A stretch of 63,708 nt of DNA, filler included, from Sphacelaria rigidula (lineage: Eukaryota): the NCBI GenBank assembly GCA_964200075.2. It is 4 parts of 4 records of this genome, joined end to end, with 100 filler letters (N's around TTAATTAATTAA, not from the genome) between each part and the next. Parts side by side here need not be neighbours in the genome. Positions count along the whole stretch, not along the records: positions 31,912 to 47,760 come from CAXNAA020001568.1; 3 more parts are not named here. One strand, 5' to 3'. The position numbers and the translations under genes are program-made. Below the pieces are notes generated by a model that ran no database searches, had not been told where the DNA came from, and worked only from the letters and a program-made list of their open reading frames with translations. Below are positions 73-45,573 of this stretch, piece by piece (positions within the stretch are counted from its first letter, which is position 1; each line of letters starts with the position of its first letter).

Positions 73-1301
73 CTTCGTCCATGCTGCGAGGGAGTCCGTT
101 TTTTTCTTGAGTTTCCAAACACCGAGCATTTGAGAATTCCGCATTTTTCACCTCGATAAACGCTGCTGTTCCCGAAGCCGCAAGTGCCAAATTTTCAACT
201 CAGATATCTCGGCAACGAGGCAGAGGATTGAACTGCGGTTCGATACGAGCGCTTCCCACACACCAGAACTTTTCAGCGACGCAACGGCTTGCCGTAAAGC
301 GTGCCGTGGAGCCCGCAGAACTTTGCAAACCGTCCAAGGTGTACGAAAAACGCGTTTTCTTCGACGTTCGGGGGGGTTTCGGATTCGCTGTGGCCATTTG
401 AGCAATTCCGTTGCGGCGCTGAATAGATCTAGTGTGTGCGCGGGGGGCTGTCAAGTGCCACATGCCGTTTAACTTCCTGTCTGGATAATTATGCGGTGAA
501 AAAATGACAGCTGTCGCATACTAAACGTAGGTAACTCGGGGTGGAGTGTATGTTCTGTTCGGCACAGGTTCGGCACAGGTTCGACCAGTCAATGACGTCT
601 TCAATACGTCTCCAATTTCCCTCCGTGTTCGTATTGTTTTTAGTTGACCACGGAGTTTTGGTCGGTAAGGCCTTCATTCATCCCCATAACTGTGATCGTC
701 GTATAGTGTGTAGATGCACAACAGCACAGCGACGACTACAGCGAAGCAATGATGGGTGTGGGAAGCGCCTTGTTACTGGAGTGTCTAGAGACCGCTGCAT
801 GCCGACAGCAGTTTGTTTCGAAGCGAACGCCATGACAGAAGTAAAGTAAGTCAGGCAGTCAGTCCCGGCGGAGATCAAGCCGTCTTCGAAACGGCCTGGG
901 GATACCACAGCGCAGCGACAGTTACAGCGCAAGAGATAGCGCATGAATGTGTTTGTGCTGCGGCACAGTGATACAGGACATGTCCCATGTGATAGTTCTT
1001 CCTCTGATTTCGGATAGGCTCGATTTCGGCAGACAGGCGGTTTTCAAACGCTGGACCAATTTATTTCACCTTGAGTAATCTCCCTGCTTGCTGCTCTGCC
1101 TTGTCTCTTGCGGAATCGGATGATCAGCGGTACAGTAGCTCCCTTGCGGGATTAGATGATACATCATCGTTGTACTGCAATTTGTCAGCTGTCTGCTGTG
1201 CGATACCTGTATGTACAGTAGGTTTTACGAGTTGTCTGCGGTCTACTCTGCGGTATCTGTGTGTACGATACAGTAGGTTCTAAAAAGCACAACACTGTAG
1301 G

Positions 1302-1525
1302 CGTGTTCAGGTTCTAAATAGTAACACTGCAAACGCTGCAGGACTGTGTTGTGTTCAGTGTACTACCCTGTACTCCATATAAGGAGGTCACGTTTTGGGT
1401 AGTTTCTGAAACGTTCTGCTTGTTTTTTTAAACGTTCTCGAATACTTCTGCTTGTTTTTCTGTCACAGAAATCCAATGCCGAATCTCGAATGGTCTGAGA
1501 CAACAACCAATTTTAAAATTGGAAT
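1302..1525 (+). repeat. Terminal segment of the CAG/CTG-foldback-associated repeat family
   Basis: gtgttcaggttcta...ggtcacgttttggg...tgtcacagaaatccaatgccgaa...tgagacaacaac...aaaattggaa recurs at about 29818-30027 and in part at about 21100-21250. Confidence 0.7.
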
Positions 1526-3943
1526 ACAGTGTATACGATATGTATGTGCAACTTTAAGTGTGAAACCCAAGTTGGATCTAGATTCTACATGTTTTGAGGA
1601 AGTTCGGAAGTATCCTCATATCGCATCCGACATCGTGCGACATGACGCGATAAGATATATCTGATATCGTATCGATATCGCGAATTGATGAGAGCAGATA
1701 TCGGGTATCGTATCCCGCCGATACTTATCTCGATGCGCATCACTACCGTAAAAGCCGTGATAGTCCCACTCGAAAAGTCAGCGTGCCTATGGAGGAAGGC
1801 ACAGTGCGACGACAGGATCACACATGGGGACATGTGACATACCCAAGTCTCAACCACGCATCAACTCTCCACGCCCAATCTTCTCAACTAAACCAGCATG
1901 ATTTACCCGTAGCTGTTGATCAGCCGGGTATGGTGTTCATGGATCTGGGGCAGACCTGTTCTGAAGATCCGACAATTGGACCCAACGCTCCATAAAAAAC
2001 ACACCACACGATACGGATTTGGAGATGTGCATGCATACGATAGCTAGCTGTCGCTGCTCCAAATTTCTGAACGAGTTGCTGTGAACCAAAAACCGTTCGT
2101 TGGGTGTAGATGGGAGCACCAGATAGATCAAGTGCACTGCGTTGGGAGACAGGTGTCTTCTGCGTACTTATTCGGGCCACTTCGTGGCGGTGTGACATGT
2201 TTCGGTTCATGCCCTCGTTCTGCCTGCTCAGATGTTCACAAGAGTTGCTCGTACCTAATTCCATTGCAAGAAACGCCGATATGAGGGGAAATATGTGCGT
2301 TATTAATTGAATCAAACCTAGACGTTTCGAGCTATAGTCGAGTTGGAAACTGATTTCAGAACGTGAGTTCGTGGATTGCCTAGACGAAACACGGCCTAGC
2401 CGGCGGCTTCAGCCCGTACCTCAAGCCGGCTGACTGCAGACCATGCATCAAACCCGGCGAAATACACCCTTAAACTGGAAATTGGAAACGTGACGGGGTC
2501 AGTTCAACAATGGATGGGTCCATGCGCGCGAGGAACCATCGAGGACCGTTCTCGTGTTTTGTGCTTTTCCGTTTTCCGTCACTCATGCGGCCTCGCCAGA
2601 ATTCGAGCACGTGTGCCGGTATTGCGGGGACTATTCAAAGGTTATCGTTGGTTGTACTGGTACAACAGCAGAAATCTTTATTAGCATCTTTCTCTAATTA
2701 ACACTACGCGGTATTCCGGTCATGCACAAGACAGAATGATTAGCCAGCATCACTGTCACAACCGAGCCAAGGATAGAAGTGCTGCAAGTAACACGCACCC
2801 GCCACTCACGAAACGCACTCAACAACCGAATCATAGTACCACGTACGCTCGAATTCGGCGCTCGCCACGAATCGCAACGGATGACCCACTGGATCAAACC
2901 ACCCAATATTACTCGTACATACCCGCCACAATGTAACCCTGCCCGTGACGCTTCCTGCGCGGACACGGACGCGAATGACCCAGGACTTCACGCACATAGT
3001 TGCGGCGTACACTCAAACGGGGATGAGCCATGAAAAAGGAAGTACCGTACAACGTAGGTATCGTTCGTGACAAGACCGATGGGAAACTGCCGACAGGAGC
3101 ATTGAATCCCGATCACGCTTCCCTACGAGTACCTACCTAAAGCATCTGCCCACCCTTGAAGAGGGACCGGTCTAAAGGGGTGGGTCTGCTCACCCTGAGA
3201 GAGGGACGGGGATGATCTTCCGAAAAATATTGACAGCACCCGCACCCGCGCTTGTACTTCACTCCACTCCACAACAATTGCCGCCATGAGCACACGCGTC
3301 GAATATCTTTGTACCGTACCCACTGTATCGCTCTTCAGCTCCACTGACGGGGTAGTTTACAACCGAACCAGTTTTATTTGAACAGGATGAACGCAAACCT
3401 ATTTCAAGCGACGGCCCCGGGGAGACCTCCGCTGAACATCTTTCAGTTGCCGCTTCCTCAGCGTACCTGCTTGCGACCTATTGTCAACATAAGCATGATC
3501 TACTGAAAGATTACATCATGTTAAACTTTGTATATTCCATATTTACACCATTTATATACTGTGTACTGACGCTCTGTTTTTCAAAGTCACAAGTGTTTCA
3601 CTAAGACCACCGACCAGGGACGCATCACCCCCATCATCGATACCATTAGAAAACACTGCGATGAGGTCGAACGACAGTACTCCCAACTCTTGCACTGCAG
3701 TACGAGCCGTACTCCACGGGAGAGCCCTCGACCGCACCAACACATATATGAACAAAAACGAGTTTCACACTGCGGCACGTACAGTTCCCGGAGTAGTACA
3801 CTCCACATACACTCCAGCTGAGTGAGGTCACATGACGCGCGACACGGCTTGGATCGACCTCCGCATGCAGAGGAACATCAGCGCCCGCGGACCATTTTTC
3901 CCCCGTTAGCCACCGCTGTGGGGTTGTTGCTTCTCCACTCCGA

Positions 3944-33947: not shown

Positions 33948-36900
33948 ATGGGAAAGGATAAGGTGTCAAAGAAGTCGTCTGAGGGCAAGAAAGCAAAGAA
34001 AAGCAAAGATGTAGTGGCCAAGAGTCCACCCAAGCCCGTGAAGGTCGCTAAGGCCGACAAGTCCTCGGGAAAGAAAAAGGAGAAAGTCGCCAAGGTCAGC
34101 ACCCCCGCTTCAGGCAAGAAGTCTAAAAAGTCCAAGGCTCCCCCCCCGCCGCCATCATCCAGCAGTGAGGAGGAGTCTGAGGAGGAGTCTGAGGAGTCTG
34201 AGGAGGTGGGTGAAAATAGGAGTCGAGCTCAAAACATGACGGTGTTCGGCTTGCAACGGGTGTCTGTCCTTTCATCATTTTCATAATGAGCGCTCACAGT
34301 GTTTCAGACCTGTGGTGTCCAGCGCATCTGCCCGTTGCACTAATCGTGGGGTAAAGGGGCATAGATCGCAGGAGGCGATTGATTTGGTCGGCGTGATGTT
34401 CACGAACTTTTATTTTCAAGTCTTTGTTGGTGCCGCTTCTTCGTGTGGTGGTGTAACTCGCTCCTTGTACTTTTGTAACGGATGGTTACACCCACACATG
34501 CAGCACAACCCAATCAAAACACTGAAGGACTGTACTACAGTACTCCCTCACGTGCAGTCAGTAGCGTTATTCGTAGTAGCAATAGTAACCCCATCTAATT
34601 GGAGCAGGCCTAGTAATGGCTACTGCTTCCTGCTCCCATGGCGTTCGGGACGCAACGAGGAATCAAGGTTCCCATGAAGGGACTTTCACAATCTTACTCG
34701 TAGCGGGTCCCCTGCTCAAAATAACTCGACATCATGATGTTCGAGGAACCCGCTTGGACGGGAGTACAGCGGTGATGACCGATCGAGTGGGTGTGCGGAG
34801 CCCAACCTGAGGAAACATGGTATATTCCATCACCTGAAGGCTACTGTGAAAACATGTTACGCAAAGGGGGTGAGGAGCACATGTATTGGAGGCGCATTGC
34901 ATACCGCCTGTGCCATTGTCCTCCCCACGGAGGTTTCTCGGGGGCCGCATGAGTGAGATTGGTCGGGGGCGTTTTCCGGCACACATACCGCAGCCGGCAT
35001 CCGTGAAATCACTAGTCGAAAGTCGACATGAGTGGTGACGGTTCGCCCGCATCTCACTCAAGGGCACAGATCCCGGGAGGTTGTAACGAAACTTAGCAGG
35101 GAAATGGGACACTGAGACAATCGGTGGGGACAGAACAGCATAGACATCATGACAACAGATGCTGAATTGTGATGTCGGGGTGTGGTCTGGCTGGTCCCGT
35201 GTGATGAGCTTCCCGTGCTTGCCAAGCTGTTGAGCGGGTTCGCGTCATTTTCGAAACGTTGATGTTGATCGACGTCATGTGCAAGTGTTGGCGCAAGTTC
35301 CCGTTTTCTCATCGACGGCTGTCGGTAATGTTTTGGCTGTCGAGTAGATGCCATATTTCTGTCTCTTGAGCGACGCGAACTCAGAGATTGTTGGCCGCTC
35401 CCGGCACAACGCCAGAGCGTGTTGTTTTTGTGTCCGCTCAAGGAGTAACTACTGCATGCACATACATGGCCTTCATGCGGGTTGCTCAATTCAAAGAGCC
35501 TCCCCCTCCTTTCCCCTGGTTCCACTTTCCTTGCAGGAGAAACCAAAGGCTGCGATGAACGGCAAAAAATCGAAGGACGCGAGCTCGAGCTCGTCGGAGG
35601 AGGAGTCCTCAGAAGAGGAAGAAGTGAGCTATCTAGTTGGGCGAACATGAATGTTCTGATTGATGATTTTCTCACGTTAGCTGATTGCACTGTCGAGCCA
35701 TGCCGGACGTCTCGTTTTACGTCAACAGTACGAGGAAAACATTCATGATTGGATTGCACATGACATCCGGTCGGGTCATCCGCTGCTGCTTTTGTACTCG
35801 CGCGCTGCTCATCACTTCACTGAACACATCGTCGTGATGATATAAGCCTGTACAGAACGTGAATGCTGTACAAAGATCCGCTGTTGATGTGTTGCGAGAC
35901 CCCGCCTTTCCTCTCTCGAAGCGGTGCGGTGCGGGTCTCGAGCATGGAGATTCCCTCACGAGGTTGCAACATGTGCACCATGAAGTAGGGGAGGTACTCC
36001 GACATCGTTCGATATATATGTCGCCGCTAACCCTCCGAGATGCGCGTGCCGCTGACTTCATGGATGCATTTTCGACTTGATCTGATTCGCTGTTACACAG
36101 AGTCCATCGTGGTCATGTAGTTGGAGTAGGCTCGCCGGAGGTGCGTGGCGAAAACCAAGAACTGTATGGTCCCTCTCTGGCGAGAATTCGAGCAGAGATA
36201 TGAGACGACAATCTGACATGAGCCGGATCATAAAAAAACCCTGGGGAAAAACCCTACACGTCCCTGCGGAGTTTTTGGACAGAAGATCGTACTACGAGCG
36301 AGATCGAGAATATCAACCCCGATTGTCCGTTCCTCACAACGAAATTTATTATGGCCACTCGACAGTAACATACATCATAACGTGCGATATTATTCCGAAA
36401 TGATGATGTCAACATGAACGATGAGAAAGATTGTGCCTCGGTCGCGCGGTAAATGATTCAAGCCCCGACCGTCGCGGCCTATCTCAGGAAAAGCCGAAGG
36501 CAAAGGCGAAGGTGGAGGTCGCTGCTAAGAAGAAAAAGAGCGATGACGACAGTTCTGACGATGACGATGACGACGATGACAGCTCTGATGAAGAGGAGGT
36601 TCCCAAGAAGGCCGCGAAGGCTAAGGCAAAGGCTGCCCCTGCCAAGGCAAAGAAAGCTGCCGCCAAAAAAGAGGAGTCATCCAGCGAGGAAGAATCGGAC
36701 GAGGACTCCGATGATGACTCTGAGGTGAGTGAGCTTTGTCTGTCGTGGATAACGAGTGAAACAATTTCCCACACACACACTTCCTGTCAACTTACTACAG
36801 GCGGTTGAACGAGGAACGCGTACGTCAAGATACAGATGAGGCCTTTTCTGGGGTATTTTACCCCTCGGTCACTCTTGTGCGGCCGCAGTTGAGTTTGCTA

Positions 36901-39900
36901 TTAACGTCGAGATGATGCTAGTTTTTCAATGCCCTCGAGTGGTTTTTTCGAAGACGAAACGCGACAGTTTTTGTCGAGAGAAATGCCCGGTGAGCATCCA
37001 TATCTACTTCTCATCATCCCCCGCATCCCCCTCTGATTTTTTTTCAACCGAGAGGACTTGCACCCATGCACGTCTCGGTCACGGCTGTAGGTGTTTTGGT
37101 TGTGTTGCCCAAAAAATGTCGCTGCAAAACGGTTGACTTTGTGCCGGTAGAGGTAAGTAAGAGGCCAGCTTTTTTTTGACGGTACAAGATGACTCCCATG
37201 CCTGATGCGTGACAGGAGGAGGATGAAAGCCCCGCCCCGAAAAAAGCCAAAGCAACGCCCCCCTCGAAGAAGGCTGAGGTAGCAAATGGAAAAAAGGCGA
37301 GCAAGGAGTCGTCCAGCGAGGAAGAATCGGATGACGACTCGGATGATGACTCCGAGGTCAGACGGTTCACGACAGGAGCGCTTTTTTTAAACTTGCGGTC
37401 GGTCACGGACGGGAGGATGAATGCCGAGGTTTTCAGTGTATTTTCCCCCTCAAATTGCTGCGAATGGTGTGCAGATGAAATTTTTCTTTTTCGACCTTCT
37501 CGATGTTTCTAGTCGAGAGCTGACGTGTGGATTCGTCCATGAAAATGCCCGGTGAGCATCGACCTTACTTCATGCCCTCCCCCCCTCCCCCCCCTCCCCC
37601 CCGACACACACATACACACATACACACATACACCACTATCTATCCAAATCTTGGGGACTTTCATCCAGCCATGTCCTGGTCACGGCTGTGGTGGTTTGGT
37701 TCGCGTTGCCCAACAATCGTAGCTCTTGAACCGTGAGCCTCTGGCGAGTCACAGCATTCACGTCGGAAGGGCGACTTATTTTTGAGTGTACACGACGACA
37801 CCCGTGCCCGTTGCGTAACAGGAAGAGGAGAAGAGCCCCGCTCCGAAGAAGGCCAAATCGAAGGCCTCATCGAAGAAGGCGGAGACAGCCAACGGGAAGA
37901 AGGCTGGCAAGTCCAGTAGTGAGGACTCGGACGAGAGTTCCGACGAGGAGGAATCTGAGGACGAGTCGGATGATAAGCCGGAGGTGATCACGGGAAATCA
38001 AGTGTCCACGGTCTCCTTGAAGTCGCGTGGTCGTACTCCAGATTCGTGTAGCTACTTTCCGGCCGTGAGGCCTAGTCACGTGTCTGGTATGCTCAAGATA
38101 CGGTCCAATCATTTGTTCCCGTGGGGCTTTGGGGTGTGTTGCTCATCACGTATACTTCTTTTGCACATTGTTCTTCCTCTCCCCTCCCCTTCCCCCCCCC
38201 CCCCCCCAACCCCTCTGTCTCCCTCGGGAAGACCAAGAAAAAGCCGGCGGCGTCTAAGTCGGCGGCGAAGGAAGACTCTGACTCCGAAGATGATGACGAC
38301 GACGATGACGATGATTCTTCGGAAGATGATTCGTCCGATGAGGAAGAGAAGCCCAAGGCGAAGGCGGTGGCCTCAGATAAGAAGGATGGTGACGACGATG
38401 ACGACTCTTCGGAAGATTCGTCTGAGGAGGAAAGCGTGAGTTTTGGTCGGACGTCGTGGACTTTTCTCAGTCCTGCGTCCAACTCTTCCCTTTATCCCCG
38501 CAAGTGTCCTCACGATTTGATCGGGAATTTCTATAGACATGAGTTCCTACCTCGGCAAGGGACTGGTGTGTAAATATGAACTCGAGTCCCTGGTGCCCTG
38601 ATTTTCGTCACGTGGGCATGACCGGATTGCATCTTGTGTACACATAAGGACAGAAATCAAGGCAGTGTATTGAGCGGTCAAAGTCTCCGGCATTTGAAAC
38701 GCATTATATATACAACGCCTTCGATTTTTTCGTGCAGGGCATCAAGTGGTATCAAGGACGCAAACAGGTGTGCCTGTCTCTTCGCGTCATGTGCCCCCGT
38801 AACGGTTTTGTTCTCTCTCTCTCGAGGTTCGTGGAGCTCGGTGTCCTATGATTACAAATCTATGCACCACTCCAGAAAGCATCACATGTGGAAAAACAAC
38901 CTGATCACCATCTTTCGTATGAGGATCCGCCGCTTGCGCTCGAACAGAGAGGGAGGATACGGTTCAATTTTAGCCTGTTTCTGCAATGTGTATTGACAGT
39001 CGATGTACTCGGCGTCGTGACTTATTCCCGTTTTTTTCAGTCATCAGGGTTCGGTCATGTAGAGCACGAGTCGAGTCTCTGTCCATGATTTACCCGGAGA
39101 GGTGTCCAATGATATCATAATAATACGTGAACTGAAATACGATTCAATGTGGTACTATTATCGCTACGTATGAGGACATCCGTTATGGGGAAGAGATGTG
39201 GAGACGTGCTTTTCGTGCACACGACGTTACTCGATTTTCCTGCACTTCGGGGAGTGTAAGACATGAATGCCGAGGGTTCCCTTTTTTTTCCCCGGGCCAA
39301 ACATCCCGTAACTTGAAGTTGACCTCAAAATGTTCCCGCCGGAATGATGTTACGGTATCGGATCTCACAACGTTTACACAGCCAATTCTCGATTCTCAAC
39401 GCCCACGGACGATGCGGCAATTATTTGCATATCTCTGTCATTTGCGTCTACATGTGGCCTACGTTGTAGACTCTGTGAGGTAATTCCTTCGATTTTTATA
39501 AGACCATGATGTGATCCCCATATAACTGTATTGTTGCCTGATATTACTTGATGGAAGCAAATGTAAAATTCGGCGATGGTATGTACTCGAAGTGCACCCT
39601 GCGCCGTGAAGAGAACAGAACTCGTGGGTACCACCCCGTCATGAGCACGAACCCTTACACGATGGTCTGTACCCCGAGGTGACGGGGTACGCATTCGATG
39701 TTTACCGAGTTACGCGACCCCAGACTGACTGGCCGCTAAGTAGTTGAGATTCCCGACCTCGGAAATTGGAACCCATTTTTTCCCCTGGTGGCGTCTCTAA
39801 TTCTCCGGCTGGTTCCCCGTGATTACAAATCTATGCACCACTCCAGAATTATCAAGTGTGGATAAATCACCTGATCACCATCTTTCGTATGAGGGAAACC

Positions 39901-42900
39901 AAGCTTGACTCGCCCTGAGACGGGCCCCCGGCACAAAACTTTACCCGTACGTTGATTTGGTATCCTGTTCCGGACCATTCGTCCCCTTCCCGCATATTTT
40001 CATGCATCCCGGGACGCCGGGTATATGGCAAAAGGCAGAGCTCGCGATTTGGGCCCCCCGACCCCGCGGTCACATAACTCGTGTTTCTCGAACAGCGAGT
40101 CCGGCCGTCCTCTCTGAGGAGTCATTTTGGACCCATGATGAGCTGTCTCACGTGTCCGAGAGTCCAGTACTGTGCGAGGAGGTTCGAGAGCCTTCATTTG
40201 GCTTGCGGCATTCGTGTTTTTTGTCTGGTTCCCCGTGATTACAAATCTATGCACCACTCCAGAATTATCAAGTGTGGATAAATCACCTGATCACCATCTT
40301 TCGTATGAGGGAAACCAAGCTTGACTCGCCCTGAGACGGGCCCCCGGTACAAAACTTTACCCGTCCACTTTGATTTGGTGTACTGTTCCGGACCATTCGT
40401 CCCCTTCCCGCATATTTTTCTTTCTGCATCCCGGGACGCCAAGTATGTGACGGAAGGCAGAGCTCGCGATTTGGGCCCCCCGACCCCGCGGTCACGTAAC
40501 TCGTGTTTCTCGAACAGCCAGTCCGGCCGTCCTCTCTGATGAGTCATTTTGGACGCATGATCAGCTGTCTCACGTGTCGAGAGTCCAGTACCGTGCCAGG
40601 AGGTTCGGCAGCGTTCATTTGGCTTGCGTCATTCGTGTTTTTTGTCTGGTTTCCAGTGATTACAAATCTATGCACCACTCCAGAATTGCTATGTGTGGAT
40701 AAATCACCTGATCACCATCTTTCGTATGAGGAAACTGGCCTTGAATTCTTGGGACTCCGCCGTTGTCTCGTGGCGTCCCTCTATGTTTTTCGCGCGCAAA
40801 AAGTGTCTTGAGGCCAATCATTGGCGTCGTGTTTTCAAGCTTGTTCCTGATGTTCCCTCCATGCACGAAATATGAACATGGATGCGGCAGGCAAGGGAGA
40901 TTCTGGACGATGTCCTTCTGGCACTAGTCATTTTCATCCGTCGCTCTGCTAGGAATATTATTCAGTCAGCACACACTGAAGGTGTCCAACATTTTGACTA
41001 TTCCCTTCTGGATTCATAGTTAGCTGGCTGGAGTGCAATGCTTCCTACAGCCGAGTCTGCCAGCTGTATACCTGAGCCGGATCTTGGGAGCACTGAGCGC
41101 CCCTGGTTTCTGCTAACATGAGACGGCTACATGTCGTTAGGCGGGGAGGGAACTGTCCAAGATATCCTTGTCTCCGTCATGCGTCGTTTTTAATGTTGGT
41201 AGTTTTCTTATACCCATCTTGGTGTACCGTGTGTATGACAGTCTTCCGAGCAGATCCTACCCTTGTAGCCGATGCTAGTGCTGTTTTGGCTGCGCCCCTC
41301 TGCCTGGCGGAGAAGAGGGGTCCCGGAGAACGTCGTCAGCTGACCGGGATGTTATTCCTGGTCCTGACCCAATGTGATTTTGAAGTCAACGGAGAAAATG
41401 AATCGCCATCATCGGTGCTGTACAAGTGATTTCCCCGTATTGTCGGTGTCGGCATTTGACCCCTGCGGTATCTACATCGCGGACCATTGTTGTGGTCTTG
41501 CCTGTTTTCGACTCGGAAGCGGGCTGTCGCGGTAGTTATTTCGCCTCTTATCCGATACTTTCGGTGATCGTCGGCGCTTGTCTCCCTCCCTGTGTTTTCT
41601 GACAGGATGATGCAGCGAAGAAGACCGAGAAGCCGTCGAAAAAGAGGAAGGCAGACGATGTGGAGGAGGAAGCTAGCGACGCCAAAAAGGTAAATGTCTT
41701 TTCCGTGTACTGTGCGTGCGTGTTGTGGTGTGGAGAAATATACGTCGAGCATTGCGAATGCTTGACATATCGGATAGGCAGCTCATGAGCTGTTTGGATC
41801 TCGAGCTTCTTTCAGCTGCGAAGATTTTCGGATCACGAGCACTGAAAAGTTCATGAACCGGAAGTGCACCACCTCACGTAATTTTGTTATTTTCTATTTT
41901 CCCCCCCGTCTTTTCGGAATGGAAAAATGCTGTTGTTTCTTTCAACGTTTTCTTTCCTTGGCTAATTGTCCGACATTTTGTATGTTTTTTTTTTTCTGAA
42001 ATCGGCGTTTTGCTTCACAGTCAAAGGGTGGTGAGAACTGCAAGATTTACCTCCGAGGTCTTCCGTGGGATACAGAGGATGACGCCGTGAAGGATTACTT
42101 CAAGAAGTGCGGAAAGGTACGTGAATGAATGTGTGCCAGTCTACAACTTTCAGTGTATGTGGGCTCATCAGCTGGAGTCATGCAAAAAGGCTCAACACGA
42201 CAGTTGATGTTTCAGTACTCCGTATTCCTTTTGCGGTGTTCGCTTCGTTTTCCATCGAAGGAGTTTAGCAGTCCCCTTCCCTCGTCGACCGTAAAATCAA
42301 ATTTTGTGTACCAACGACATGGTCGCTTTCCACTGTTGAGCTTCGTGTGAGAAGGAGTCCCAGATCGCGTGGCTGCACCGACATTCGAATCCACGACTCT
42401 ATTTTTCGGAAGGATTCGAGGTGACCGACTAAGCCACTGGTGCAATAAATTAAAATGGAAGCAACATTTTTACATGGCATATGGTCGATGCGCTGTATTC
42501 GATAAGAGTAACACGCATGGCCACAGTGTTTCTGCTGCTGTCAGATGCAACTTGTGTCCGCCGATGAAGTACCAGCACCACTCTGCGTTTTTGAGGGATG
42601 GAATTGAGCGTCCGAGTGTTCTCGAGCGAGTTTGAAACAGACGAATGCTCTGTGATCCAGCACGTACTCACACCGTATCCGGAGTTATTGACGGCGCACG
42701 GAAGTTCAAGCTTGGGAAGAGTGCTTCCTACTCCGCAGTCTACTTCGCAACAATGACCTGTGCACACATTTCCAGCCTTTTTGATCGAACGACGTGAAAG
42801 TAGCCGTGGGCTGGTGAACGAGCTATCATATTGTGCAAACTACATGCCGAATGTTGGCACGCGACATCAACCCCGTTCTATTCTGTTCTTATGAGCGTAA

Positions 42901-45573
42901 AGGTCATCACGCTACTGGCGAACGAAGGACAATACAGCGAGCACCACGCAGACTACCCTTGAGCACTCTGACCTTTTCCGGACTGACCGATTCAAAGGTT
43001 CCTCGCCTCCAGCTGATGTGGAATCCGATGGAATTCTGACGTACGTGAGGCCTTGCACCATATGTTTTCGACCTGTTTTGAACAGGTGTTGACTGTCGAA
43101 CAGCCCAAAAACCCCGATGGGCGCTCGAGCGGAACCGCGTTCGTTACTTTTGATAGCGCGGCGGCTGCTGGGAAGGCTGTGGAGGTGAGATATCAATCTT
43201 GGTAGACACTGTGGAGCTTTTCTGGTCGAATTCTTTTAGTGATCGTTGTGATATTCGTCGCATATCAGCCGGTGCCGAAGAGTCAGCGGCGATACTCATA
43301 AAGGGACTGATCTCCCAAAGCGAACAAATCTGAACCGCTCGTTGGAGGAAACACGACGAGGGAAATGGGCACGAACGAGATGTGGAAGAACGATCGGATC
43401 GCATTATTCTTCCGGTGAAATCCTCGTCCCACGATGACGGTAGAATATGTTTGACGTGAAGAGAAGGCTGTTTGACGTTTGTGTGACACTCCTGTCGACG
43501 CGATATTTTATTGGGAGAAAAATGTCGAGTTTCAGGGCAACTGTGAGCTACATTTTTCAAGATATAGAAAAAATCTCCGTGGTTCGTCGAGTCACATGTG
43601 CAATGACGAAGCTGGAATGCGATAAAAGTTGATACCTGATGCGTTGGCCTAAGGCGCTGATTGTTCCTACGTCATCGTGACACTCGAGTGCCCCTGATTT
43701 CTCCATTTTTTTTCCGTTGTCGGCGTTGTTTCGTCCTGCAGATGGACGGGGGGGATTTTGGCGGGCGATGGCTGAAGATCATGCTTTCATTCGAGAAGCC
43801 CGAGGGAGGCGCCCGCAACGGCGAGAAAAAGGAAAAACCGGAGGGCTGCACCACTGTCTTCATCGGCAATCTGTCGTGGTCGATCGAGGAGGTGTGTCAG
43901 TGTTCTCAGTGTGCGTGTTGAGCTGTCGAGACGGCAATAATATGTGGCTGGGATTATGATGGCTAGCTCAGCACAGTTTGACGTAACATGAACACTAAAG
44001 AAGCCGAGTTCGTGTGCGGTCCGATATAGTGGATGCGTCGTGGATGTTATTTCTAGGAACGGAAGTACTGGCCCGACCGTACCTCGACGAGGAGGACAGT
44101 TCGAATGAAGTGCCGGTGAGCATCATGATCTGGGCACAAAACAAAGATTTGAACAGGTGCAAACTGATTTGATACTTGGCCATCTCTATCTCGTTACCTC
44201 TCATGGTCATGAACCTTGGTAGCATACGTTACAATCACTCCCTGTCCTCACTCTCCATTGTCGTTCCCTCCAGTTTTATCCACAACGTGCTGAGCAGTCC
44301 CCGTATCTGCGTTGTGAAAAGCAAAAACTTTTCACGACCCCAAGATGGCACTGTCTGACCTGATGTGGCTATCCTCCTCGTCCTGTTTCGTCTCGTTCTT
44401 GCCTCAACACCTCACCGCGAAGGACACCGTTCGGTCAACGTTCGGCGAGTGCGGCGACATCAAGAGCGTTCGCTTCGCGGAAGATCGAGAGTCTGGAGAG
44501 TTCAGGGGCTTCGGACACGTCGAGTTTTACGATGGAGTGGGTGTGGATGAGGCGATGAAGTTGGCAGGCACGGACGTGATGGGACGGCCTATCAGGGTAA
44601 GTTTTTGAAGATTGTGTCGCGTAGGGTATTTTTTACGTCGGGATGGTGTGAAAAGACGTACTTTGAGCACCTCGATGGAAGTGGAATACTCAAATCATAT
44701 CGTCAACTCTGGATGAACATTTGGTATTGTAATGCCATCATATGTGACTTTTTCTCGATATTCGGACAGAGGATGAAGATGAAATCTTCGCAGAACAAAG
44801 CTCGAGATACTTATTATCCAGGTATTTACCCTTCCCTGCACACCGGACATGACGTCTGTCAGCTGTCCGACAGTGGAACGACCGGATGAAAGAGCTCACT
44901 CTGTTTCCCCCCTCCCCCAACGTATTGATTGTGTAGGATATCGAGGTTTCTGAAGCTTTCCCTGACGCAATTCGTTTTGTAGAGGCCTATGGGTGCATGC
45001 TGTGATTTTTCGTGTGGAGCATGTTAGCCCACGCTGTGTGGAACAGGGGTCGTTCACGCCCAGGCACAGCAGTCGATAGTCCAAGCGAGACCACGTGCTT
45101 TTTGTCAACAGCTGCAGTTTGAAGCCTACAGTGCTAGTGATCTTGCTCAAAAGCAAGTATTGTCAACACTCCCGCACACGACAGTCTCACATGGCACTTG
45201 AAGAACAAAACGAGGGCATGACTGAACTCTCCAAATCCAAGGTGACAACTGTAGCCAACAAACCGTACATGAACAGCACAACGATGCGGTACCTATATAT
45301 TTTCGTTTCAGTTCTTCCACATGTATCCTGTTTCATGCATGTTTGCAGGTCGACTACGCGGCTCCTCGCGCACCTCGTGAGGGATCGTTCGGTGGAGGTG
45401 GAGGACGTGGTGGAGGACGAGGAGGTGGCGGTAAATTCGGCGGCGGGGGCGGTGGACGAGGAGGGGGGCGTGGTGGTGGTAGGGGTGGGGGAAGGGGGGG
45501 TGGAGGAGGTTTTAGTCCTCGCGCGAAGCAAGGCATCCAGTCTTTCCAGGGAACTAAGAAGTCATTTGATTAA
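33948..45573 (+). CDS. NCL: Nucleolin-like protein (NSR1/gar2/plant NUC type): acidic/basic N-terminal repeats, two RRMs, C-terminal GAR/RGG; about 638 aa in 12 exons
   Basis: Exons 33948-34205, 35537-35623, 36488-36724, 37216-37356, 37822-37983, 38232-38435, 41606-41689, 42021-42116, 43086-43184, 43742-43891, 44423-44596, 45349-45573, all phase 0 with GT-AG. RRM1 IYLRGLPW/SGTAFVTF, RRM2 VFIGNLSW/RGFGHVEF, RGG tract ending FQGTKKSFD. Confidence 0.93.
38839..38929 (+). ncRNA. Box C/D snoRNA, U32-like double guide, copy 1 (most diverged)
   Basis: C box ATGATTA 38848-38854, D box ATGA 38919-38922, terminal stem cggtgtcc/ggatccg. Guides CTATGCACCAC (antisense to SSU GUGGUGCAUGG) and TCACCATCTTTCG (antisense to LSU CGAAAGAUGGUGA). 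Confidence 0.8.
39101..39180 (+). ncRNA. Candidate box C/D snoRNA (different family)
   Basis: 7-bp terminal stem ggtgtcc/ggacatc enclosing C-like ATGATAT, D' CTGA 39132-39135, C'-like GTGGTA and D-like ATGA 39170-39173; guide target uncertain. Confidence 0.4.
39810..39901 (+). ncRNA. Box C/D snoRNA, U32-like double guide, copy 2
   Basis: C GTGATTA 39819-39825, D ATGA 39889-39892, stem tggttccc/gggaaacca, both guides intact. Confidence 0.8.
40226..40317 (+). ncRNA. Box C/D snoRNA, U32-like double guide, copy 3
   Basis: C GTGATTA 40235-40241, D ATGA 40305-40308; identical to copy 2. Confidence 0.8.
40646..40738 (+). ncRNA. Box C/D snoRNA, U32-like double guide, copy 4
   Basis: C GTGATTA 40656-40662, D ATGA 40726-40729, 9-bp stem ctggtttcc/ggaaactgg, both guides intact. 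Confidence 0.8.
42130..42445 (-). mobile_element. Diverged tRNA-derived SINE in nucleolin intron 8
   Basis: The reverse complement contains A-box-like tggcttagtcgg, B-box-like ggattcgaat, and body acacaaaatt.gattt.acggtcgacgagggaaggggactgct. Confidence 0.7.

Follow-up and report, generated by a model that had tools for sequence, protein, structure and literature searches.

Intron 6 of a nucleolin-like gene of the brown alga Sphacelaria rigidula (GenBank assembly GCA_964200075.2, record CAXNAA020001568.1) very probably carries a genuine cluster of small nucleolar RNAs (snoRNAs) of the box C/D class, judging by its boxes, guides, and stems. It comprises four copies of one double guide, with predicted targets in both the small-subunit (SSU, 18S) and the large-subunit (LSU, 25S) rRNA, and one different C/D candidate. 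The four units, each about 90 nt long, all lie on the plus strand within this single intron, at positions 38839 to 38931 (copy 1), 39810 to 39901 (copy 2), 40226 to 40317 (copy 3), and 40647 to 40738 (copy 4) of the 63.7-kb stretch of DNA that was analyzed (here, the window). Their spacings are 970/971, 416, and 421 nt, and their starts agree within 1 to 2 nt with those given in an earlier note, made from the sequence alone, that proposed the cluster. The cluster is a new example of a known gene arrangement, not a new mechanism, and every element of it is of a known kind.

In box C/D snoRNAs, the C box, RUGAUGA, is close to the 5′ end and the D box, CUGA, close to the 3′ end. The intron 6 units contain variants of both, (A/G)UGAUUA and AUGA, which are invariant in all four copies and keep the GA dinucleotides of the sheared pairs; the same variant pair is found in 8 of 15 aligned family members. 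From 5′ to 3′, each unit consists of a stem strand (GGTGTCC, GGTTCCCC, or GGTTTCC, depending on the copy), the C box (A/G)TGATTA, the segment CAAATCTATGCACCACT with the 18S guide, the D′ box CCAGA, a spacer of 9 to 10 nt, the C′ box TGTGGA, a linker, the segment CCTGATCACCATCTTTCGT with the 25S guide, the D box ATGA, and the 3′ stem strand. Each unit thus has the box C/D build with two antisense elements that the earlier note had proposed. In copy 1, these parts are the C box at 38848-38854, the 18S guide core at 38860-38870, D′ at 38872-38876, C′ at 38887-38892, the 25S guide core at 38905-38917, and the D box at 38919-38922. The guides are located at 39831-39841 and 39875-39887 in copy 2 (D box, 39889-39892), at 40247-40257 and 40291-40303 in copy 3, which is identical to copy 2, and at 40668-40678 and 40712-40724 in copy 4 (D box, 40726-40729). 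Terminal stems of 6 to 9 bp are present in all copies; that of copy 1 (GGTGTCC/GGATCC) has 6 bp and a bulge, that of copy 4 has 9 bp, and the stem changes between copies are compensatory.

The distribution of changes among the copies follows this architecture. In the four-copy alignment (A1), none of the 57 box and guide columns is variable, compared with 21 of the 34 stem, spacer, and linker columns (Fisher p = 4e-12; only three distinct sequences are involved because copies 2 and 3 are identical). The antisense elements are therefore invariant, as had been claimed. The companion claim, that the internal spacer and the terminal stems vary while remaining paired, holds for the variation of both and for the pairing of the stems; no support was seen for pairing inside the internal D′-C′ spacer. 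Exact matches to CTATGCACCAC and TCACCATCTTTCG occur four times each in the window, at the units only. When up to one mismatch is allowed, there are 6 and 4 matches, respectively, against 1.17 and 0.11 expected, and none of 100 shuffled sequences has as many. The covariance model R1 recovers the four units (copy 1, one of its training sequences, at 81.6 bits) and zero further copies in the window.

A repeat search likewise finds two four-copy families that jointly span the unit (38840/39811/40227/40648 and 38881/39851/40267/40688). Copies 2 to 4 head tandem units of approximately 416/421 bp with spacers that are 92 to 94% identical (repeat families D1, D3, and D7); the first, 39811-40226, is headed by copy 2 and the second, 40227-40647, by copy 3. 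Tandem Repeats Finder returns zero rows for 38400-41700, and the units of approximately 420 bp rest on the repeat-family search. Because these tandem units are young, purifying selection on copies 2 to 4 is poorly measurable. This leaves some room for an alternative in which only one copy, or none, gives a working snoRNA and the rest are decaying tandem duplicates. However, copy 1, with flanks unrelated to those of copies 2 to 4 and with a diverged stem and spacer, still keeps all 57 box and guide positions, and copy 4 differs from copy 3 at the stem and spacer only, with compensatory stem changes that produce its 9-bp stem. Such decay is considered improbable.

The double guide is also found in metagenomes. 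A metagenome scan for ATGCACCAC followed, after a gap of 20 to 50 nt, by TCACCATCTTTCG yields 17 matches in 16 loci; 16 of these matches are C/D-shaped and have the same guide order. Scanning 596 Gb of prokaryote genomes with this pattern gives zero matches, as does scanning viral contigs; the reverse guide order, that of human U32A, also has zero matches in viral contigs. The match in locus L004 is chance-like, as it is located within a 289-amino-acid open reading frame (ORF) and has no boxes. All other loci (L001 to L003 and L005 to L016) share the build and guide order of the window units. Most of them have a UGYGGA C′ box, and UGAUUN/AUGA boxes are found in L001, L015, L003, L006, L008, and L010. 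In contrast to the CCAGA of the window, their D′ box is mostly canonical or nearly so (CUGA or CCGA).

These sequences provide a test of the terminal stem. The 15-sequence alignment is made up of 12 sequences from metagenomes and the 3 different sequences of the window copies; L004, L010, L011 and L016 (which have the same sequence as L009), and the second copy of L006, which is truncated, are left out. The terminal stem emerges in the RNAalifold structure, and each of its 4 pairs shows double changes. In this stem, 88.3% of the cells pair, compared with 49.9% after shuffling, and none of 500 shuffles is as high; the stem covariation score is 0.919, compared with 0.224 after shuffling, and slid registers give 35 to 48%. 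Cognate 10-nt flanks average -10.1 kcal/mol, against -4.5 kcal/mol for 234 noncognate combinations (p = 7e-8; 16 sequences).

The surroundings of the homologs, within the ±400 nt to which their flanks were read, are varied. L006 carries a tandem double-guide pair interleaved with two SNORD36-like RNAs on the minus strand (135-216 and 479-558; 38.0 and 34.6 bits, cutoff 30), and L001 has a snoR38-like RNA at 627-709 on the plus strand, approximately 160 nt downstream of the double guide. In L007 and in L009/L011/L016, the double guide lies between same-strand ORF pieces that, by eye, resemble LisH/CTLH exons. Since the flanks, where readable, are LisH/CTLH-like and not nucleolin-like, the host gene does not appear to be conserved in this family.

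The guide before box D forms 13 Watson-Crick pairs with the LSU motif CGAAAGAUGGUGA. Five positions upstream of AUGA, the guide pairs with the second A in CGA[A]AG, and tabulated yeast sites place Gm805 (snR39b) and Am807 (snR39/snR59) two nucleotides apart, a spacing with which this register is consistent. The earlier assignment of this guide to the LSU adenosine equivalent to yeast Am807 and human Am1511 fits these data, and in domain II of the LSU methylation would be expected at the second A of CGAAAG. The base 5′ of TCACC, on which the search pattern placed no constraint, is an A in all 15 aligned rows; this conserved nonpairing base is also present in the consensus of the Rfam family RF00134.

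The guide before D′ forms 11 to 12 pairs, including 1 or 2 G-U pairs, with the SSU motif GUGGUGCAUGG. The two bases 5′ of ATGCACCAC, which the search pattern left free, are pyrimidines in every one of the 15 rows, and pyrimidines are what the GG of the rRNA needs as partners. In homologs with the context CACCAC-N-CUGA, the fifth position is G4 of GUG[G]UGCAUGG, which fits the spacing of Um1269 and Gm1271 in yeast and of U1326 and G1328 in human in the published passages that list them. The window context is CACCAC-U-CCAGA; counting from CAGA leads to the preceding G (G3) and counting from CCAGA to the conserved G (G4). Coverage of the Gm1271/Gm1328 motif, as proposed earlier, is thus borne out, and the exact nucleotide is ambiguous by one because D′ is the 5-nt CCAGA. 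According to passages from van Nues and Watkins, it is the 5′-terminal C of D′ that determines which nucleotide is modified, and with an extended or unusual D′ box the methylation site can be displaced or become two sites. The expected SSU site or sites are the second G and/or the first G after U in GGUGGUGCAUGG. In both rRNAs, the antisense elements have at least 10 nt next to D or D′ and place the predicted methylated nucleotide at the fifth pair, with the target strands taken from conserved motifs. Both target sites are listed as methylated in yeast, human, Arabidopsis, and Dictyostelium in the published passages on these modifications, and both guide cores are present in the published universal reverse primers 1324R (18S) and Po28R4 (28S).

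The variant boxes have a structural counterpart. Passages on the kink-turn (K-turn) describe pairing of the C-box G6 with the D-box C1 in stem II. Given this pair, UGAUUA/AUGA would keep a Watson-Crick pair as U-A, and we infer that C-box U6 and D-box A1 can form the stem-II pair that is normally G-C. Box D is AUGA in 8 of the 15 aligned rows, all of them with U at position 6 of the C box; they form 4 sequence groups (the window copies, L001/L015, L003, and L006/L008). Among the 7 rows with CUGA, C-box position 6 is G in 3, U in 3, and ambiguous in L007. The C′ box is UGUGGA or UGCGGA, instead of UGAUGA, in 13 of 15 family members (alignment A2), which by this alignment is a conserved deviation specific to the family.

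Several observations weigh against a snoRNA cluster. Among the 15 rows, 3 have U/C at the stem-II pair, so that the pairing rule is loose; published passages indicate that the C and D boxes deviate at just the stem-II positions contacted by Nop5; and D′ and C′ are noncanonical. The complementarity to rRNA rests on conserved motifs and primer sequences of other organisms, not on the native rRNA. No discrete small RNA was seen in the available sequencing runs, whose contigs cannot resolve RNA ends or levels. Rfam has zero matches at gathering thresholds in the whole window, and the best subthreshold match has 36.5 bits against a cutoff of 55. Finally, the minimum-free-energy z-scores of the units, -0.9 to +0.4 relative to shuffled sequence, add no support. 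Unremarkable folding energies are usual among C/D snoRNAs.

The subthreshold Rfam matches are nevertheless to families with the same guides at the same positions, which is how the Infernal search suggested in the earlier note turned out. For RF00134 (snoZ196/R39/R59), copies 4, 2, and 3 score 36.5 (E value of 0.0074), 29.5, and 29.5 bits, respectively, against the cutoff of 55, and copy 1 is unlisted; the consensus of this family has AUCACCAUCUUUCG directly before box D, the same guide in the same place as in the units. For RF00300 (snoZ221_snoR21b), the scores are 24.4, 21.8, 21.8, and 18.5 bits against a cutoff of 44, and its consensus has AUGCACCACU directly before the D′ box CUGA, again as in the units. 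RF00533 (Me18S-Gm1358) is also among the best subthreshold rows; here, the guide before D′ is the 18S one. RF00133 (Z195/SNORD33/SNORD32) has no match at its gathering score of 44, and a subthreshold match may be hidden behind RF00134, as the families involved share the clan CL00054. Among 11 homolog loci run against Rfam, none reaches a gathering score for the double-guide RNA.

The host gene has a coding span, as read, of 12 exons at 33948 to 45570 on the plus strand. Its stop-to-stop ORFs on that strand include K/S/acidic repeat exons, RNA recognition motif (RRM) pieces, and an RGG tail, with RRM1 in exons 8 and 9, RRM2 in exons 10 and 11, and the tail in exon 12. The Pfam domain RRM_1 is detected in 3 of 6 exon translations, those of exons 8, 9, and 11 (E values of 1e-3, 1.4e-4, and 3.3e-10, respectively). 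This is the layout of nucleolin, Nsr1, and plant NUC-L, which have acidic/Ser-rich repeats at the N terminus, RRMs, and an RGG (GAR) region at the C terminus. A protein search with the RRM2 exon finds 12 proteins; the best is a named Ectocarpus sp. product with 85% identity, which fits the attribution to a brown alga, and two relatives with 55 to 64% identity are named “nucleolin” by their source. By its domain layout and named relatives, the host is a nucleolin-like gene, as had been recognized before.

Transcript evidence comes from eight public sequencing runs that match the stretch; none is recorded as RNA, and they were read as assembled contigs only, so that introns without contig cover are uninformative. 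GT..AG joints across eleven introns are found in contigs of runs X1 to X3, compared with zero joints in the DNA-like run X5, whose depth is flat at approximately 27. The joints show that the host transcript is spliced, and we infer from them that X1 to X3 contain cDNA and that the host gene is expressed, apparently at a high level, with the units in its sixth coding intron. Intron 6 itself (38436 to 41605, plus strand; GT..AG) is defined by the joint 38435>41606, which skips 3170 nt. Runs X1, X2, and X3 each have a single contig with this joint, and X5 has none; the intron number given in the earlier note stands. It is flanked by the acidic/Ser-rich exon 6 (38230 to 38435; joints 37981>38230 and 38435>41606 in X1 to X3, and ORF translation) and by exon 7 (41606 to 41687; joints 38435>41606 and 41687>42019). 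Contigs of X1 to X3 also cover parts of the intron, e.g., 38407-39838 and 39809-40254 in X2.

The host gene also appears to contain dispersed repeats. The summed contig depth of X5 rises to 583 to 3631 at 41880-43121 (introns 7 and 8), compared with approximately 27 elsewhere, and most contigs there are 95 to 99% alike, which suggests a high-copy dispersed repeat. A repeat search of intron 8 (42100-43100) finds zero internal direct or inverted repeats. Dispersed repeats within the host gene, and a copy search confined to the 63.7-kb window, are compatible with the snoRNA unit being part of a dispersed mobile element, or a snoRNA retrocopy, instead of a locally maintained gene cluster. This is very unlikely, given that neither motif nor covariance-model searches find extra copies in the window, that all copies are sense-oriented in one intron with flanks free of poly(A) tails, that X5 contigs reaching into the copies have a depth of 26 to 32, near the gene baseline, and that homologs elsewhere likewise lie in snoRNA clusters or introns. 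Even less credible is an action in cis on the nucleolin pre-mRNA (e.g., in splicing control), or as precursors of small regulatory RNAs, which would accord with the partial cover of intron 6 in RNA-like runs and with the unusual D′ and C′ boxes, but what stays invariant coincides exactly with the four boxes and the two elements antisense to rRNA, and the same double guide in other hosts, as between the LisH/CTLH-like exons of L007 and L009, implies that the function is tied to the RNA itself, not to nucleolin.

As snoRNAs, the units would be bound on the pre-mRNA or on the excised intron by Snu13, Nop58, Nop56, and fibrillarin. Endonucleolytic cuts in the spacers would then separate them, and exonucleases would trim them until the stems are reached, the route known from intronic clusters of plants and Drosophila, producing RNAs of about 85 to 92 nt. 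Through the 13-bp guide before D, fibrillarin would be positioned at the LSU adenosine that corresponds to yeast Am807 and human Am1511. Through the 11- to 12-bp guide before D′, it would be positioned at the SSU guanosine that corresponds to yeast Gm1271 and human Gm1328 or at the 5′ neighbor of this guanosine, the choice depending on how the 5-nt D′ box is read.

The different C/D candidate in intron 6, snoB (39100 to 39182, plus strand), was found by box scan and folding. It has the C box AUGAUAU, D′ CUGA, C′ UGUGGUA, and the D box AUGA, and its fold shows a 7-bp terminal stem, GGTGTCC/GGACATC. Model R1 matches it over the full length with 18.3 bits (E value of 0.0087), and its alignment to copy 1 scores -4, compared with -60.7 ± 10.4 for shuffled sequences, none of 500 being as high. 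Both have the 5′ stem strand GGTGTCC, the C′ sequence UGUGG, and the 3′ end CGTATGAGGA / CGUAUGAGGA, whereas the guides differ; snoB may be a paralog with changed targets. An Rfam search of 38930-39810 at E values of up to 10 lists two chance-level rows only, none of them for snoB. Additional snoRNAs near 39341-39489, 39505-39590, and 40128-40200 in intron 6 were considered by eye and rejected, as no convincing combination of D box and stem was seen.

Other parts of the host gene show a few further features. Intron 2 contains a weak C/D-like candidate at 35655-35753 on the plus strand, with TGATGA, a 14-nt element, CTGA, ATGA, and a 5-bp stem; it begins 32 nt past the 5′ splice site. Exon 4 (37214-37354) is skipped by an alternative joint, 36722>37820, in X1 and X2, beside the constitutive joints. 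A 108-nt GT..AG “joint” within the RGG-repeat exon, 45390>45499, is found in run X2 only; instead of an intron, it may reflect an assembly error across the RGG repeats. Long C-rich or CT-rich tracts are found in introns 4 and 5 (37560-37613 and 38164-38226; repeat family D2).

Brown-algal snoRNAs are barely catalogued. In the passages available from one kelp genome paper, only 24 snoRNAs are reported, from Infernal/Rfam, and the available passages on Ectocarpus describe snoRNA loci by bulk prediction only, with CDseeker and ACAseeker. A locus without an Rfam match at the gathering score would be missed by standard pipelines, and this applies to the intron 6 cluster. Literature searches on snoRNAs combined with brown algae, Ectocarpus, or nucleolin found no description of this locus; the guide string and the word snoRNA are absent from the searchable supplement files (3 of 4) of PMC4513859, and a full-text search for the guide strings returned mostly unrelated primer tables. 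The cluster provides a well-supported predicted guide for two methylations of rRNA that yeast, plants, and humans have in common, and it extends the intronic snoRNA clusters known from rice and Drosophila to a further lineage. It also offers a natural test case for how noncanonical C/D boxes, with U-A in stem II, and a 5-nt D′ box set the methylated nucleotide. The understanding of snoRNAs is unchanged; the cluster is of use for annotation and for comparative work.

Among the closest known snoRNAs is human SNORD32A (U32A), which occurs as one copy per intron and has canonical boxes. It, too, belongs to the box C/D class and carries two guides, their targets being the same two sites, SSU Gm1328 and LSU Am1511, and it is encoded in an intron of a translation-related host gene. 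The guide order is reversed: in the published passages on U32A, the 18S-G1328 guide precedes D and the 28S-A1511 guide precedes D′, whereas the window units have the 18S guide at D′ and the 25S guide at D. Both the shared target pair and the opposite order were already stated in the earlier note. No window match to RF00133 is listed, overlapping matches of one clan being hidden.

Each guide taken singly has a counterpart at the same position. Yeast snR40 (RF01201) and plant snoR21b/Z221 (RF00300) have the 18S guide, ending in AUGCACCAC, before D′, with the targets Gm1271 and Arabidopsis thaliana Gm1272, and published passages on fungal snR40 assign 18S-1271 to its D′ element. Their D guides differ from that of the window units, that of snR40 being directed to 25S Um898. 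Yeast snR39/snR59, plant Z196/R39/R59, A. thaliana U51, and human U51 have AUCACCAUCUUUCG directly before D, directed to LSU Am807/Am814/Am1511, and the shared guide includes the conserved nonpairing A 5′ of UCACC. Unlike the window units, these snoRNAs have no 18S guide at D′, and the model consensus has canonical UGAUGA and CUGA boxes. In chicken, a published table places the two guide functions on separate snoRNAs.

A possible, if doubtful, reading of these relationships is that the window RNA and its metagenome relatives represent the undivided form of the CL00054 lineage, one snoRNA with an snR40-type D′ guide for SSU Gm1271 and an snR39/59-type D guide for LSU Am807, which would be ancestral to the single-function snoRNAs of yeast and plants and to the reversed human U32A. 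In several lineages, the stem-II G-C pair of the K-turn would have coevolved to U-A (UGAUUA/AUGA), and CCAGA in the window would shift or double the 18S site, placing methylation at the positions that correspond to G1270 and/or G1271, in the manner of the unusual D′ boxes of yeast U18, snR48, and snR13.

The gene arrangement also has parallels. In vertebrates, the nucleolin gene NCL hosts C/D snoRNAs as well; in a published table, intron 5 of chicken NCL carries U82/Z25, and intron 11 carries U20. These snoRNAs and their targets differ from those described here, and there is one per intron. Since host identity is not conserved in the double-guide family, the shared nucleolin host type is probably convergent. 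Several snoRNAs per intron of a protein-coding host are described for rice and Drosophila in passages of PMC2780460. Compared with those clusters, the one in intron 6 belongs to another lineage and consists mostly of one snoRNA amplified by tandem duplication.

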